A stretch of 64,000 bases of DNA from an uncultured delta proteobacterium (GCA_963848135.1 CAWKCK010000018.1:634938-698937); one strand, 5' to 3'. Positions 12,001 through 18,000 are shown, counted from the stretch's first letter. Program-made: the numbers.

Positions 12001-15000
12001 CCCAGACTTCCATGGCAATTCTGGGCTTATGGGGCACTTCACCTTCGAACTGGTAGAACGGATAGCTGGTCTCACCACCCACGGTCACCGCTTTGGCGCC
12101 CGTCCCCAGGGTGATCTCTTTGATCTTTCCCGTGTACGATTCCTTGTAAAATTCGAAGCCCAATGTTACCTCCTTAATCTCAATAAATTTAATAATTCGT
12201 TGAGGTTACACACTACGCAAACAATGCGCACCCACCGGACGCAGGTAAGGCCGCCCGGAAAATCGAAGTGTCTTATCCCCTCCTTTCGTATATTGAATTT
12301 TCCAGTATATCTACCGATCTATAGTGCAGATGAAAAAACAGATTATATATGTAACGGTCAGATGACTGCAGTCGTGTCGTCTTTAGTGATGAGGGTATGG
12401 GCAAAAGAATGTGACTATCCATCGCATTGATTGGTTTGGTACCAAGGATAACCCTTTATATTGGGATATTATTTTTGTCAATAGAGGAGTCCAATAAATC
12501 GGTCTAATTTCGGCATTGTCGACGCTATTTTTTCATCATGGTATTGCGCATTTCCAAGCGCCTCTTGAGTTCGGGAAACTGGTTCAGATCTGTGTGAGGC
12601 AGAAACAGAGCTGCCACATAGTTGTCCATGTATGAGGTTGTTTCAGACAGTTCGAAATTGGTCATTTTGCGGGTCACTTCGACCACGTCGCGCCGGATGC
12701 GATTTGTCAGGGCACTCATCTTGGCACCCATCAACGAACCGTTACCGACGAAAATGACCCGCTCCGGATCGATTTCCGGCAGGAGTCCGATGGTCATTGC
12801 TTTGGCCAGATCGACATAACTGCCGAATCCACCGGCCAGAACAATGTGTTCGATATCCTGGATCCCCATGCCCACTTCCGTGAGCAGCGTCATGCAGGCG
12901 CTGTATATGGCAGCTTTGGCCCGGATGAAATTCTCGATGTCGATTTCCGAAATGATAATGTCCCGATCAATCTGGGTCTCGTCTTTCCATGCCAGAACAT
13001 ATTCCCAAATCCCCTCGACCTCTCGGATACGGAGCGTATCGAGGTCACGGTTGAATTTGCCTTGATGGTCGATGATACCCATTTCGAACATCGTGGCCAC
13101 AATGATGATCAAACCGGAGCCACAGATCCCCTTGGGACGGACATTTCCGATGGTGATGATCATCGGCTCCTGGCTCAGCGGGTCAATCGAAAAATCCTCG
13201 ATGGCCCCTTTGGTCGCGCGCATTCCAAAGGTAATTCCTCCCCCTTCAAATGCCGGCCCGGCTGATGCCGCCGCACACGCCAGCCAGTCTTTGTTACCGA
13301 TCACGATCTCGGCATTGGTCCCGATATCGATAAAAAGGGTCAGCGCCTCGGTACGGTAGACACCCGACCCCATGACACCGGCGACGATGTCTCCGCCCAC
13401 GTAGCTGGATACAGAGGGAAAAACCAGCGCGGATGCGTGATCCGCCAATTCCAATCCCAAGTCGGTGGCCGTGATCGGTGGATAAAGGGTAGATGCAGGC
13501 ACGTAAGGCGATCGCCGGATGTAACGGGGGTTCACATTTAGAAGCATTTGGGTCATGGTGGTGTTGCCGGCCAGGGTAATTGACGAAACCTCTTCTGCGT
13601 CGAGACTCGCCCGGCGAAGGACCTTGCGAATGACCGCATTGACGGTCTGGATCACCACCGCATGCAACCGCTTCAGACCACCGGGTTTCTCAGCGTAAAC
13701 GATCCGGCTGATCACGTCCTCCCCGTAGCTGATCTGACCGTTGAACTCTCCATATTGGGCCAGCACCTCCCCGCTGATCAGGTCGATCAATTGAGCATAA
13801 ACGGTAGTGGTCCCGATATCGACGGCAATGGCGTAATTCCGATCGGTGGTATCGCCGGGTTGTACGTCGATGATTCGGGTTTTACGGCCCTTGTGAACCG
13901 GTCTGGCCAGGGTAGCGGTCAACCTGAAATTATCCTGCCGCAGAACATCGGGAAGCTTCCGAATTACGGGCAACTCTACCACCAGACGGTGTTCGCCATG
14001 CTGCAACTTTAAAAAACTAACCAAACGGGTCGCATCGGCCAGGTTATCCTGAGCGGTGGGTGGGGGCAATTCCAGGTATTTCTTCTCCACCGGCGGCATG
14101 AACAATCCCTGATCTTTCAATTCCTCCAGGTTCATCTCCTGGATTCGCGCTGTCCGCCTTGGGGTGGCCTGCATGTTCAGTACCGCCGCATCGACCTCTG
14201 ATTCAACCGGAATGCGCACCGCGATATCTTCGGTAACGGTGCTCCGGCATGCCAACCGGTAGCCCTCGTCGATATCCTGACGATTGAGCCTGTCGCTGAG
14301 GCCGCCTTCGACCATACCTTTCTCGATAATAACGCGGCATTTTCCGCATACCCCTTCGCCGCCACAGGAGGCGTTCACGTGCACACCGGCTTCCATGGCC
14401 ACCCGAATGAGAATATCTCCTTTTGCCGCCTGAATGTCTTTATTATGGGGTAAAAACGTAACTTTTGGCATTTCGTATCATATCCTTAACTCATCGAACC
14501 GGCAGCTGAGTTTCAGCATTTCACCGTCGAAAAAGGTTTTGATTTGAAACGGCAGGCTGCTGAACAGCTTGATCATGCCCTGGTTCTGTGGAATCGTATA
14601 GGCCGTAAAGCCGGCTATGCCGTTTTCCCTTGCCGCTGCACTGAGCTTGTTGATTAGTATTTTTCCCAAGCCTTTTCCCTGATAGTCTTTACTGATGGAA
14701 AAAGCCACTTCAGCCATGTTGTTAGCCGGATCGAGCAGGTATTCGCCGATACCGACCACCCGCCGGAATCCGAAATCACCGACGACAGCCAATATCGTCA
14801 GGTCATTCATATAATCGATCAGGGAAACGCCTTCGATTTCGGCACGATCGAAGTAGGTTTTTTCGTGAAAAAAACGTGCAACAACATCCTTTTCGTCGAG
14901 GTTATAAAAATGTTCCTGAATACGACGGGCGTCGACCGGCTTGGCCGGCCGGATGACCACTTCCTGGCCATCGATTCTAATGGTTTCCTCCAAGTGAACC

Positions 15001-18000
15001 GGATAAACCCCATGGAGCGATTCGGTCACGGTACGCTTCCGACTAAGGAGCCCCCTTTCCTTGGCTTCCTCTAAAAGCTGATCTCGGAAGTCGGGGTGGG
15101 CGATGCTGATCATGGCCAAAGCCCTTTCCTGCAGGCTCTTACCGAAAAGGTTGACCGCCCCGTATTCGGTCACCACGTATGACGTGTCGCTACGCGGTAT
15201 GACCGTAGCCGTATCGGACAGCATCGGCACGACATGGCTGACCTTGCCGTTATGGGTGGTGGATCTGAGCATAAGAATCGATTTCCCGTTTTCTGCCTGG
15301 GAAGCTCCCCTGACAAAGTCGAGCATACCCGTAATGCCGGAAAACAGGTTTGACGGCAGGGCATCGGCGGCGACCTGTCCGGTCAGATCGATGGTCATGG
15401 CCACGTTCATGGATACCATTTTATTATGACGGGCAATGACGGCCGGGTCGTTGACATAGTCGGACGGATGGAGCTCGATTCCTGGATTATCGTGTATGTA
15501 TTCATACAGGCTCTTGCTGCCGATGGCGGTGCCGGCAATGATCTTCCCGTCATTGAATCCTTTTCTACGATTGGTCACCACCCCCCGGGCGACCAGGTGC
15601 ATGATATCATCCGTAAGGAACTGCGTATGAATGCCCAAATCGTTCTTTTCGGACAGTGCCAACATCACCGCCTGGGATGTTGTCCCCATACCGATCTGAA
15701 TGGTGGATCCGTCGTCTATAAGTCGTGTAATTTGACTGGCGAGAAGGTTGGCCTGCTGTGATTCCAACGATGTATCGATGGTCAGCAACTCCTCGTCGTA
15801 TTCGACGATGACATCGACATCGTTGACATGGATGAAACTGCGCCCGAGGGATCGGGGCATGTTGGCGTTGACCTGGGCAATGACGATATCAGCCGACTGC
15901 GCCGCCGCTAGAGTAATGTCGACCGAAACGCCCAGGCTCATCCAACCGAAGTCGTCCGGCGGCGAAACCTGAATCAGAGCGGCGTGAATCGGAAGCCGGC
16001 GTGTTTTGAACAAACGCGGTACCGCGGAAAGGTTGAGGGGCGTGATGAACCGTTGATTTTGGGCAAGCCCGCGCGGTTTGGCCGAGCCGGCGTAAAATAA
16101 GCGGATGTTGAGCGCCTCGCTCCTTGATTTTTTGGCCATAAGAGTCAGTGGGGCACTCTCAAGCGCCATCAGGCGGACGATTTCAAGGTCCTGCAATCGT
16201 TCGACTTCTTCCGACAGGATCCGCACCAGATGCTGCGGTTCACCGGAAGCCGCGCCGATGAATACCCGTTGGCCCGATCGTAGCAGCGTCATGGCTTCCC
16301 GGGCCGTTCGTTGACGCTGGATGTATAGATCGGCCCAGTAGCCCCGCCTTTTCATCATAGACATCATTGGTTCCTCATTAGTAAACTCGACCCCTTTTTG
16401 GAAAAACCGATTCGATTTGCACCGACTTTCGCATTACGGCAATGCCGGAATAGTGGGATACAAGACCGGAAAGTGGAACAACTCATTTGTAACAAACGAA
16501 CGCATCCCCATAAATCCATCCCTTCCGACACCCCATCTCTTGACTATGGCCTGTCTCCATGGCGGGTTTCCTGGACAGACCCTGAGGGTCTGAATCTCCT
16601 GTTGATTGGATCAATTTTCCCGATGGATGCCGACCATCAATGCAAACAGAACCGCAATGATTGCCTGACCACTCCGCGATTGACCCTTTTTGGCTGTACA
16701 ATTGCCGGATGCCTCCGTCTTTTCGACATATCCATTGGTTTCGGTAGCCGGCAAAGAGATTTTTCTATCAGCAACAATGGATGGCGTCAACCGCTCGCTT
16801 TTCTGAATCTCAGTACCCGATAAGATCCTGTTTTACCAACCTTTACCAACCCTGCGGCTTCTCGGCGTGGATCCGACCAGGGCTTGACTCTAAAGGGTCT
16901 TTTCCCCATAGTCCTCATCCACCATTTTCTAAAGGGATGCATTAGGACCTATGGTGCCTTAATGTAACGTCCACTAGATTATAACTGTATTTTGCTTCAT
17001 GACTTGACTTTTTTCAGCTCGTAAATTAGATAATTTATCATGTTTTGGCACGAGATTACACAGATAATCAGCGACAAGCTCGAACCTATCTGCAGGTCTG
17101 TGGTTATTGGAATATCAACGTGCCACTTTGAGATGCTGTCAGAATAGTAACTCAAAATCCACCTGACAAATTGGAATTTTGCAGTAAATCTGTTGTTCTA
17201 TCAACCCTACATTAGGAGGAATGCTATGAAAAGACGGGAATTTATCAAGAAAGCTGGTGCTGGGGCTGTTGCAGCTGGAGCCGTGATTGCAGGAGCTCCT
17301 TTTGTACATGCACAAAAGACGATAGAAATTACAATGGTGACTACGTGGCCGCGTGATTTTCCTGGTCTGGGTACTGGCGCGCAACGTTTTGCAAAGCGAT
17401 TGTCCGATATGACCAATGGTCGTATGAAAGTGAACTATTTTGCCGCTGGTGAACGGGTAAAGGCCTTTGATTCCTTCGATGAAGTTGCCTCGGGCAATGC
17501 CCAGATATATCATGCCGCCGAATACTATTGGAAAGGCAAGCACCCGGGTTGGCCTTTTTTCTGTTCTGTTCCTTTTGGTTTAACCGTCAACGAATTTAAC
17601 GCCTGGATTCGCTTCGGCGGAGGCCAGGAATTATGGGATGAACTGGGTGCTGAATTTGGAATCAAAGGATTGATGTGCGGCAATACCGGCTCGCAGATGG
17701 GCGGATGGTTTCGCAAGGAAATCAACTCTGTCGATGACCTGAAGGGGCTCAAAATGCGTATTCCGGGCCTTGGCGGTGATGTCATGGCCAAGCTGGGCGT
17801 TTCCCCTGTTTCCCTTCCCGGTGGCCAGATTTATGAAAACCTGATTTCCGGATCAATTGATGCGACGGAGTGGGTTGGCCCCTGGAATGATGCATTCATG
17901 AAGTTCTATGAAGCCGCCAAGTATTACTACTATCCGGGCATGCATGAGCCAGGGTCGATGCTTGATATTGGCATGAACAAAAAATGGTGGGATGGCCTTT

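Follow-up and report, generated by a model that had tools for sequence, protein, structure and literature searches.

The window is a stretch of 64,000 nucleotides, and it carries on its minus strand a gene that fuses a CoA-transferase-like body to a Pat-type GNAT domain (Table 1). As the first-pass annotation had observed, three Pfam domains lie in this frame, each above its cut-off. The body contains AcetylCoA_hydro (PF02550, residues 28–194, 2.9e-19) and AcetylCoA_hyd_C (PF13336, residues 283–435, 5.2e-61), and a linker joins it to a C-terminal domain with Acetyltransf_1 (PF00583, residues 535–602, 2.2e-9; 38.1 bits against a cut-off of 20.7). CoA_binding_2, Succ_CoA_lig and ATP-grasp_5 were not matched by Pfam in the 629-residue protein. 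Solved enzymes of the 4-hydroxybutyrate CoA-transferase type span only residues ~11–443, which bears out the earlier claim that this family leaves the tail uncovered. The linker has a pLDDT below 50 at residues 446–452 of the fold model, and from about residue 454 onward it aligns with the stretch of PatZ that precedes the GNAT domain (YP..LEE).

Table 1. Features of the fusion gene and its neighbours, in window coordinates.
Feature	Position	Strand	Details and basis
Fusion gene, CoA-transferase-like body and Pat-type GNAT	14478..16367	-	whole ORF, 629 aa and stop, ATG to TGA
Body, residues 1-440, 4-hydroxybutyrate/butyryl-CoA-transferase-like, predicted non-catalytic	15048..16367	-	Pfam, PDB matches, Foldseek, dN/dS
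Q249 (CAG), in the alignment position of the nucleophilic Glu (AbfT E238, 3gk7)	15621..15623	-	alignment and codon
GITGM, residues 344-348, in place of the G-x-G-G-Q loop	15324..15338	-	alignment, relatives, fold model
Linker, residues 441-465	14973..15047	-	PatZ alignment, fold-model pLDDT
Pat-type GNAT acetyltransferase domain, residues 466-629	14481..14972	-	Pfam, NCBIfam, PDB sequence matches, fold search
R498-F499-F500	14868..14876	-	R498 and F500 are the equivalents of PatZ R754 and F756; both invariant in 5 paralogues
E553 (GAA)	14709..14711	-	aligns with catalytic Glu of PatZ (E809) and MtPat (E235)
Y562-Q-G-K-G-L-G568, acetyl-CoA pyrophosphate-binding loop	14664..14684	-	alignments
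RACo (reductive activator of corrinoid protein)	12525..14471	-	start 6 nt past fusion-gene stop
CdhD-like protein	10613-12163	-	cluster spanning 5895..12163
ACS	8346-10559	-	same cluster
CdhD with Fe-S domain	6885-8327	-	same cluster
Pterin-binding protein	5895-6791	-	same cluster

The fusion gene lies upstream of genes for RACo, CFeSP and ACS, and no terminator-like site was found on the gene strand between it and RACo. It had been placed inside an acetyl-CoA synthase/CODH operon; RACo, CdhD and ACS do adjoin it, but the gene heads the cluster rather than lying within it. Searching the whole genome with the protein gave five matches at E<=1e-5, each spanning approximately residues 8–627, and a PF13336 search recovered the same five ORFs. 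The other four paralogues contain the same three Pfam domains, so that every member of the family in this genome does carry the GNAT fusion, as first described. A search with the tail matched only these five ORFs and a canonical Pat was not found in the genome, making the five fused proteins its only Pat-type acetyltransferases; its ATP-grasp_5 proteins are without a Pat-type GNAT. The genome also encodes an AMP-forming acetyl-CoA synthetase (Acs) with a PKTRSGKIMRR motif, two sirtuins and approximately four HDAC-family proteins. The surroundings of one paralogue (L001) were partly as reported, with PFOR and PHA synthase E/C (and an SDR) nearby, but the thiolase was not found within 11.9 kb.

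The C-terminal domain belongs with the GNAT domains of Pat proteins. The 190-residue tail matches nine distinct PDB sequences at E<=1e-3, all of them Pat, PatZ, PatA, MtPat, MsPat or SsPat; the best are 9it0/9isq (2e-18) and 4nxy (1.5e-15), and MtPat (4ava) follows at 1e-9. In a fold search the first GNAT matches are that of SlPatA (4u5y, TMt 0.89) and then PatZ (9it0). The nearest non-fusion relatives of the tail are GNAT-first Pat proteins with CoA_binding_2, Succ_CoA_lig and ATP-grasp_5. The ‘Pat-type’ label of the first-pass annotation is thereby borne out for the GNAT domain, while the NDP-forming acyl-CoA synthetase-like regulatory domain of Pat types I and II is missing, and the NCBIfam model for acetyltransferase Pat (NF058543) covers the GNAT part only, at 57.7 bits against a cut-off of 460. 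The stretch YQGKGLG fits the acetyl-CoA loop of GNAT proteins (Q/R-x-x-G-x-G/A), and the equivalents of the catalytic Glu and of PatZ R754 and F756 are all present. Mutagenesis in the PatZ structure paper gives E809, R754 and F756 as needed for activity, which is lost in the R754 and F756 alanine mutants. E553 is a glutamate in 80 of 80 readable relatives, and R473, P477, D479, R498, F500, E553, Y562 and Q563 are invariant in the five tails. The shared motifs quoted earlier are roughly right, except that the opening RP(A/L)KP(V/S)DE is loose: the window protein itself has RPAKPVDA, and the fourth and fifth tails have RPLLPSDE and RAIKPSDE. Weak NCBIfam matches to the ArsN1 and AAC(6') families were also found.

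A complex model of the GNAT domain (residues 455–629) with the C-terminal domain of the genome's own Acs scores 0.74, against 0.00 for the best control; 116 of 157 solved complexes come up to this mark, as do 2 of 215 mismatched pairs. The runs share at least 93% of their contacts, with a partner pLDDT of at least 85. In the model the PKTRSGK loop of Acs lies against GNAT residues 496–505 and 553–555, the active-site cleft. Since a like complex (4U5Y) has been solved, the score shows likeness and may reflect memory of the model; with this caveat, the model supports binding of Acs by the GNAT domain.

The GNAT domain could instead acetylate a small molecule, such as an amino acid, a polyamine or another amine, with the body supplying or sensing the acyl-CoA. 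The GNAT superfamily is broad and enzymes of related sequence can acetylate small molecules; there are the weak ArsN1 and AAC(6') matches; and one relative, P0252, is a triple fusion of body, GNAT and a histone-deacetylase domain; the histone-deacetylase family also includes polyamine deacetylases. However, each of the nine PDB sequences matched by the tail is a Pat-group protein acetyltransferase, the tail retains the residues lining the Acs-lysine site of PatZ, basal members of the clade adjoin Acs genes with the target-lysine motif, and the complex model, memory aside, puts the lysine loop of Acs in the active-site cleft. A small-molecule acceptor is therefore unlikely.

The body retains the fold of family I CoA-transferases, with homology over both Pfam domains. 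Eleven PDB sequences match it at E<=1e-70, among them 9vag (1.4e-106, the best) and 3gk7 (1.1e-78), and Foldseek superimposes it on RipA and 4HBCT with TMt 0.88–0.93. The catalytic motifs are lost. Q249 falls opposite the Glu of the H(T/S)E motif in each of the five solved 4-hydroxybutyrate CoA-transferases shown; in AbfT this is E238, the catalytic residue that forms the glutamyl-CoA thioester, and in RipA it is taken as E249 from the PDB titles ‘E249A/E249D mutant, RipA’. The glutamate nucleophile of the family is thus replaced by Gln. The G-x-G-G loop adjoins the thioester and acts as oxyanion hole; its G-G-Q is present in the same five enzymes, and the GITGM that replaces it is the least confident part of the fold model. 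Four of the five paralogues, the window protein among them, have Q at the nucleophile column and one has P, and the G-x-G-G loop is broken in all five. The NCBIfam equivalog for butyryl-CoA:acetate CoA-transferase (TIGR03948) reaches 250.7 bits against a cut-off of 674.8.

The same loss marks a whole clade. Among 85 relatives the nucleophile column reads Q in 68, M in 5, H in 3, R in 3, L in 1, P in 1, E in 3 and a gap in 1; Glu is absent from 81 of the 84 readable sequences and G-x-G-G is kept in none of the 84, the three members that again have Glu included. Despite this the body and the GNAT domain are equally under strong purifying selection, each with a dN/dS of 0.10 relative to the closest orthologue (L005). 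Intact relatives have 104 conserved positions in the body, of which 84 are unchanged here, and several of the changed positions bear new conserved residues. Residues 87, 92, 98, 104, 106–108 and 128 form a cluster that differs from the intact relatives, because of which the pocket may no longer bind CoA esters at all. The first-pass annotation had also entertained a self-acylating CoA-transferase; for this genome that idea finds no support, since the glutamyl-CoA thioester cannot form without Glu and this residue is replaced in all five paralogues.

The tail finds matches at E<=1e-8 in 97 of 150 other genomes of the phylum, and among the 145 matches listed outside this genome (a further 36 exist) 104 lie in frames of 590–810 residues, 32 in frames of 830–980 and 9 in frames under 310, in agreement with the smaller size count of fusion-sized, Pat-sized and short frames made before. 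In a sample of 42 fused proteins from across the phylum, 37 have retained an acidic nucleophile together with the GG loop. The motifs are kept or lost as a pair: all 37 proteins with E or D have GG, and all 5 with neither residue lack it. The tree needs at least 4–6 changes between the intact and the lost state. The dead body is thus derived and has arisen several times. Most fused relatives look catalytically intact; the fusion did not start out as a sensor, and the GNAT domain may serve the transferase and not the reverse. Of 39 unfused relatives from the phylum, 9 carry Gly at the nucleophile column and still have the GG loop; given these, loss of the Glu alone is no proof of inactivity.

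The window protein might still be bifunctional, its body transferring CoA or hydrolysing acyl-CoA in a non-canonical manner and its GNAT domain using the acyl-CoA produced beside it or regulating the transferase in cis, even with the transferase as the substrate of its own GNAT. Thermus TtCoAT (9vag), a free-standing homologue, is the substrate of a GNAT lysine acetyltransferase, and a metal-dependent deacetylase removes the modification, but acetylation left the transferase activity itself unchanged (bioRxiv 10.1101/2025.10.31.685773). The union of body, GNAT and deacetylase domains in P0252, the intact motifs of 37 of 42 fused relatives and the strong selection on the body point the same way, and another catalytic route may exist because 9 of 39 unfused relatives also lack Glu. 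Against these stand the loss of both hallmark motifs in every paralogue, the low model confidence at the former G-x-G-G stretch, and a nucleophile column open to Q, M, H, R or L among orthologues, a freedom not expected at a catalytic position. On balance bifunctionality, its cis variant included, appears fairly unlikely.

Gene order gives a further view of function. ACS/CODH genes adjoin the fusion gene in 30 of 80 related loci, RACo being missing from the cluster in 7 of those linked to ACS/CODH. PFOR is adjacent in 7 of the 80, and Acs genes with the acetylation-site motif adjoin basal members of the dead-body clade in another count of 7 of 80. Clades elsewhere adjoin Acs, PFOR or ADP-forming acetyl-CoA synthetase, the last of which neighbours intact fusions in 5 of 20 loci. 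The proposed coupling of the acetyl-CoA node of the Wood–Ljungdahl pathway to lysine acylation has the conserved order in 30 of 80 loci as its only basis, and gene order names no target. The fixed place at the head of the RACo–CFeSP–ACS cluster in these loci, together with a dead transferase site, would also suit a protein that scaffolds or assembles the ACS/CFeSP machinery, in which protein both domains are vestigial binders and no acyl transfer occurs in vivo. This is very unlikely, however, as 80 of 80 relatives retain the catalytic Glu of the GNAT domain, the acetyl-CoA loop persists as well, and paralogues and sister clades occur in unrelated contexts (PFOR, Acs, glycogen phosphorylase).

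We consider the protein to be a Pat-like lysine acetyltransferase with a pseudo-CoA-transferase as its regulatory domain, at a probability of about 0.5, its targets and ligand being inferred. Where Pat has its domain like an NDP-forming acyl-CoA synthetase, this protein would have a 4-hydroxybutyrate-CoA-transferase fold that has lost the ability to transfer CoA. The dead body would bind, but not convert, a CoA thioester, CoA or a short-chain acid, and this binding could gate the GNAT domain or shape its substrate site, as in PatZ. The GNAT domain would then acetylate at least one enzyme of the acetyl-CoA node, for which AMP-forming Acs is the best-founded candidate and the products of the neighbouring operon are possible ones. 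The five paralogues may be sensors wired to different modules that produce or consume acetyl-CoA, and the window protein probably acts as a metabolite-sensing regulator of acetyl-CoA metabolism. Of the original proposal of an acyl-CoA-sensing acyltransferase, the architecture and the Pat-clade tail stand, but sensing does not follow from the fusion as such, both motifs being present in 37 of 42 fusions. The notion of a sensor body gains direct support in this genome from the loss of Glu and G-x-G-G in all five paralogues of a body under purifying selection.

The protein shares with Pat/PatZ (YfiQ) of Salmonella and E. coli (type I) and with SlPatA (type II) a GNAT domain from one clade that retains the catalytic Glu as well as the substrate-site R/F, a large non-catalytic domain derived from an enzyme of acetyl-CoA metabolism, and Acs as a plausible target. 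It differs in that its large domain has the fold of family I CoA-transferases (AcetylCoA_hydro/AcetylCoA_hyd_C) rather than CoA_binding_2, Succ_CoA_lig and ATP-grasp_5, and in size (629 residues against ~886). The available parts of the review of types I–V (PMC8556138) and of the PatZ structure paper mention no type with a CoA-transferase fold, and no paper describing a fusion of CoA-transferase and Pat GNAT was found in our literature searches. To call it a second architecture of Pat is thus fair to the literature searched, but the domain combination is already annotated by NCBI and JGI in thousands of entries.

AbfT (3gk7), RipA (3qli) and TtCoAT (9vag) resemble the protein over residues ~11–443 (E 1e-77 to 1e-106, TMt ~0.9), from which it departs by Gln for Glu, by GITGM for G-x-G-G-Q and by the added C-terminal GNAT. 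In the mycobacterial cAMP-Pat and ACT-Pat (type III) a ligand-binding domain likewise precedes a Pat-type GNAT, and E235 of MtPat (4ava) aligns with E553; there the regulatory domain is a small cyclic-nucleotide- or amino-acid-binding module, and not an enzyme relic of ~440 residues. Intact CoA-transferase–GNAT fusions (e.g. P0241, P0164 and P0209 from an Asgard archaeon MAG) have the three-domain build and the Pat-type tail in common with the window protein; as they, unlike it, keep H-T-E and G-I-G-G-Q, they may be true bifunctional enzymes.

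The fusion gene heads an acetyl-CoA synthase operon, and we put at about 0.5 the probability that its product is a Pat-like lysine acetyltransferase in which a CoA-transferase turned pseudoenzyme serves as the regulatory domain. On this reading the body would bind a ligand and control the GNAT domain allosterically, with proteins as the presumed targets. The architecture described in the first-pass annotation is confirmed, as three Pfam domains lie in one 629-codon frame (table below). Residues ~11–443 match the 4-hydroxybutyrate CoA-transferases in the PDB (9vag, 1.4e-106; 3eh7, 2oas, 3d3u, 3gk7 and RipA) and residues ~449–620 match Pat proteins. 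The AlphaFold2 model, built with 40 sequences, has a mean pLDDT of 84.9 and a pTM of 0.81, with weak spots at residues 342–345 and in the linker (446–452). Structure comparison of this model places the body with RipA/4HBCT (TMt 0.88–0.93), and the first GNAT-bearing matches are the GNAT domain of SlPatA with Acs (4u5y, TMt 0.89), followed by E. coli PatZ.

Coordinates of the fusion gene, the domains of its product and neighbouring features
Feature	Position	Strand	Basis or description
Fusion gene	window 14478-16367	-	629 codons, single open frame from ATG to TGA
AcetylCoA_hydro	residues 28-194 of fusion protein		Pfam, above gathering score
AcetylCoA_hyd_C	residues 283-435 of fusion protein		Pfam, above gathering score
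Acetyltransf_1	residues 535-602 of fusion protein		Pfam, above gathering score
Cluster following the fusion gene	window 6885-14471	-	no CODH between CdhD-like gene and ACS
CdhD-like protein	window 10613-12163	-	516 aa; CdhD profile match only at residues 16-300 (profile positions 1-244/387); last 200 residues without assignment
TRAP transporter	window 17193-22240	+	divergent, upstream of fusion gene
Open-ended ORF	window 1-2784	-	928 codons, runs off the window; no Pfam match at E<=1e-5

The tail had been called Pat-type, which holds as far as sequence and fold reach. All nine distinct PDB sequences matched at E<=1e-3 are Pat-group protein acetyltransferases, including PatZ (9it0/9isq, 2e-18), SlPatA (4nxy/4u5y, 1e-15), MtPat (4ava), SsPat (3f8k) and MsPat (4orf). 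E553 aligns with E809 of PatZ and E235 of MtPat, and R498 and F500 align with R754 and F756 of PatZ. In sections of the PatZ structure paper E809 is given as the catalytic residue, and alanine mutants of R754, F756, E809 and I846 as inactive. All three aligned residues (E553, R498 and F500) are invariant across the five paralogues of the genome, and E553 is retained in 80/80 readable relatives. Homology to PatZ begins ~15 residues ahead of the GNAT core (YP..LEE); the linker therefore travelled with the domain.

Searched against 1.84 billion sequence representatives the tail gives 7928 matches at E<=1e-3 and 1425 at E<=1e-10. Pfam scanning of the 54 proteins of at least 300 aa among the best 150 matches gave two main builds, CoA-transferase–GNAT fusions and Pat proteins, in which the GNAT comes first and CoA_binding_2, Succ_CoA_lig and ATP-grasp_5 after it. 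Rarer builds are cNMP-binding plus GNAT and those of three further proteins. P0216 (598 aa) is a fusion of a Pat-type GNAT with acetate kinase, and P0155 (960 aa), a cluster mate of which is labelled Myxococcales, joins a 4Fe-4S ferredoxin domain, a CoA-transferase body and a GNAT. P0252 (1013 aa) consists of a CoA-transferase-like body, a Pat-type GNAT and a histone-deacetylase domain, so that predicted acetylating and deacetylating domains are on a single chain; its nucleophile column reads HTD and its loop is degenerate. The domains of P0252 mirror three Thermus proteins, TtCoAT, TT_C1711 and TT_C0104.

The statement that the genome holds five paralogues, all of them fused, also stands. Searching the 18 contigs (98.65% complete) with the fusion protein gave five near-full-length matches (100, 61, 60, 37 and 30% identity), a PF13336 search returned exactly the same five ORFs, and the four other paralogues have the identical Pfam three-domain set. 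The 190-residue tail used as query finds five places, all of them fusions. The ATP-grasp_5 proteins of the genome (706–735 aa, ADP-forming acetyl-CoA synthetase type) are without a Pat-type tail. A canonical Pat is thus absent from the organism, whose sole Pat-type acetyltransferases are the five fusions. The genome also contains two SIR2 genes, about four genes of the histone-deacetylase family and a gene for an AMP-forming Acs (C2:188394-190277) that bears PKTRSGKIMRR. One sirtuin gene (C3:801443-801961) lies within ~3 kb of a gene of the histone-deacetylase family (C3:804637-805512); the second sirtuin gene (C7:98208) and an ACD-like gene (C7:94654) are also ~3 kb apart.

The body differs from the solved enzymes at both catalytic motifs. 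At the nucleophile site these have L-G-(I/V)-H-(T/S)-E, whereas the window protein has L-G-I-H-T-Q in 5/5 printed alignments. The Glu of this site is residue 238 in 3gk7 (AbfT), the nucleophile on which the glutamyl-CoA thioester is formed, and RipA PDB entries titled ‘E249A’ and ‘E249D mutant’ point to the equivalent residue in RipA. The loop reads S-G-x-G-G-Q in the enzymes and S-G-I-T-G-M in the window protein. In the four other paralogues the nucleophile site is HSQ, HSQ, HTQ and HSP, and the loop GVSGI, GVSGI, GIGDQ and GPAEL. Alignment of 85 proteins (80 loci of species genomes in addition to the window protein and its four paralogues) shows Gln in 68, Met in 5, His in 3, Arg in 3, Leu in 1, Pro in 1, Glu in 3 and a gap in 1 at the nucleophile column, which thus varies freely, unlike a catalytic residue; the G-x-G-G loop is intact in none of the 85. 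Gln being common to 68/85 of the aligned proteins, an error of sequencing or assembly is ruled out as the source of Q249. The catalytic apparatus of the body has probably been lost. A body that is still active, within a bifunctional or self-regulating enzyme, is unlikely given these changes, even with fused relatives elsewhere in the phylum that keep both motifs (see below).

The body is under selection and not decaying. Comparison with the closest orthologue (L005, 81% identity) gives a dN/dS of 0.10 for the body (residues 10–440) and 0.10 for the GNAT, dS being saturated against more distant orthologues. In 46 fused relatives that look catalytically intact, 104 body positions reach a conservation of at least 85%, and 84 of these positions are retained in at least 80% of the 25 members of the clade that lacks the motifs. 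The changed positions include G346 and a cluster at 87–108, and several hold new, well-conserved residues (Y92, R106, F107, A281 and V405). This pattern looks like a function changed rather than lost. A mere scaffold, acting in the ACS/CFeSP machinery without acyl transfer by either domain, is very improbable. The changed positions also warn that the ligand of such a body, if it binds one, need not be a CoA ester.

The wider phylum indicates how this state arose. Forty regions of other genomes yielded 42 fused proteins, after exclusion of three wrong-frame ORFs (L099.2, L103.1 and L119.1; 14–16% identity). Their nucleophile column holds Glu in 30, Asp in 7 and P, Q or L in the remaining 5; the GG of the loop is kept in 37/37 with Glu or Asp and gone in 5/5 with P, Q or L. 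The two motifs are thus retained or lost jointly. With both motifs in 37/42, the proposal that every fused protein is a sensor is ruled out, and the body without motifs is, on this sequence comparison, a derived state. Glu loss alone is not peculiar to the fusion. Among 39 unfused control relatives the column holds Glu in 26, Gly (H-S-G) in 9, a gap in 3 and a probable misread in one (L172, retained in the counts), so Glu is also lost alone outside the fusion, and all 39 pass a script test for the GG pair. Joint loss of both motifs is seen only in fused clades in this comparison of 42 fused and 39 unfused proteins. The unfused L156, L157, L160, L162, L164–L167 and L170 have H-S/T-G at the nucleophile and retain the G-x-G-G loop. 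At two loci, L108 (G012:C26) and L109 (G091:C34), fused genes occur as tandem pairs in which one copy has HTE and the other HTD with W-V-G-G-Q, with Asp at the GNAT catalytic column in both.

A quick, unrooted maximum-likelihood IQ-TREE phylogeny of 86 fused proteins, with SH-aLRT support only, requires at least six changes between the acidic and lost states, four of which are forced by well-supported branches; both figures are quoted because support is weak for the deep branches (48) and two joins are flagged as long-branch. The five paralogues fall in three separate, fully supported ‘lost’ clades (the window protein with L001 and L002; L003; L004), each adjoining motif-keeping lineages. In view of this weak deep support and of the missing root, the claim is limited to repeated change.

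The gene order around the fusion is consistent with a link to acetyl-CoA. RACo begins 6 nt after its stop and is followed by a CdhD-like gene, ACS, CdhD with an Fe-S domain and a pterin-binding protein. Scanning 14300–17300 gave 7 promoter-like sites versus 3.1 expected, all weak consensus matches, but nothing resembling a terminator anywhere on the minus strand, the fusion/RACo junction included. One metatranscriptome run, in which 6% of sampled words were present, gave seven contig pieces of 90–99% likeness; these come from a relative and none spans the fusion/RACo junction. Genes of the ACS/CODH cluster adjoin the fusion gene in 30/80 related loci of other genomes, several of the others running into a contig edge. 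Of these 30, 29 have the cluster downstream on the same strand and one is rearranged; RACo is missing in 7. An AMP-forming Acs is within four genes in 7/80 loci, directly downstream in 4 of those; all of these Acs proteins bear the acetylation-site motif PKTRSGK(I/L), and the loci are basal branches of the window protein’s clade in the tree. PFOR is within two genes in seven loci and at the paralogue L001, and about a dozen loci adjoin glycogen phosphorylase, RmlD and a TetR-family gene. For intact fusions, an ADP-forming acetyl-CoA synthetase is the immediate neighbour in 5/20 loci. Enzymes producing or using acetyl-CoA are the theme common to these neighbourhoods. The five intact genes so placed (L130, L131, L132, L134 and L138) are directly beside a synthetase of 704–807 aa, a member of the family from which the regulatory domain of canonical Pat derives.

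Acs is also a candidate partner in structure prediction. The tail (455–629, with alignment) modelled with the C-terminal domain of the genome’s own Acs scored 0.74, passing a mark attained by 116/157 solved complexes versus 2/215 mismatched pairs, and the best of three controls scored 0.00. Three runs have at least 93% of contacts in common with a partner pLDDT of at least 85, and the predicted interface sets the Acs loop 637–645, which holds the motif lysine, against GNAT residues 496–505 and 553–555. A similar complex (4U5Y) is solved, so this pass may stem from the model’s memory. The prediction shows that the Pat-like recognition surface is still present; it does not imply binding of this pair. 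The rival that the tail acetylates a small molecule appears improbable beside the nine Pat-group protein acetyltransferases matched in the PDB.

A review of bacterial lysine acetylation (PMC8556138) sorts the acetyltransferases by regulatory domain into types I–V, with no CoA-transferase type among them. In parts of the PatZ structure paper, GNAT competence requires acetyl-CoA binding to the regulatory domain, which helps form the Acs pocket; term look-ups in its main text return no mention of a CoA-transferase. The best PDB match of the body, 9vag, is the structure of Thermus TtCoAT. Sections of a preprint (bioRxiv 10.1101/2025.10.31.685773) report that a GNAT acetylates TtCoAT, that a metal-dependent deacetylase reverses this, and that acetylation leaves activity unchanged and relieves inhibition by a partner protein. 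The full-length fusion has 7888 matches (clusters at 90% identity) at E<=1e-10, the best 120 of which are all fused. The tail was found in 97/150 sampled genomes of the phylum, and one catalytically intact fusion comes from an Asgard archaeon MAG. NCBI names such proteins ‘GNAT family N-acetyltransferase’ and JGI ‘acyl-CoA hydrolase/GNAT superfamily N-acetyltransferase’; full-text searching of main articles found no paper on a CoA-transferase–GNAT fusion. The build is thus common, already annotated and, as far as these searches reach, undescribed in the literature.

If the pseudoenzyme reading is true, these fusions would add one more type of metabolite-gated acetyltransferase and a clear natural enzyme-to-pseudoenzyme series inside one fusion family. 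They would also point to complete-oxidising sulfate reducers controlling PFOR, Acs and the acetyl-CoA synthase/CODH pathway post-translationally. A broader proposal is tentative when all its steps are taken jointly. CoA-transferase–Pat fusions would be the main enzymatic lysine-acylation system of Desulfobacterota, present also in some Asgard archaea; the first members of the family would have been functional CoA-transferases linked to a Pat GNAT, with conversion to pseudoenzyme sensors on at least three occasions. Each of the five paralogues might signal the acyl-CoA state of its own module (ACS/CODH, PFOR/PHA and others) and set the acetylation of enzymes making or splitting acetyl-CoA, and the Wood–Ljungdahl acetyl-CoA synthase machinery would then be under an acetylation control not recognised before. 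Genes of the clade are labelled acyl-CoA hydrolase/transferase, and correcting this label matters for metabolic reconstructions of acetate activation because their products probably cannot run the labelled reaction.

Some further features of the cluster and its surroundings were observed. A CODH of the Prismane family lies between the CdhD-like gene and ACS in many related clusters (L008, L009, L039 and others); L005 and L020, like the window cluster, have none at that place. The membrane parts of the TRAP transporter are unusually long (DctQ-like 362 aa, DctM-like 886 aa), and in ~10 related loci a DctQ- or DctM-like gene, mostly divergent, is found upstream at a distance of no more than five genes from the fusion gene.
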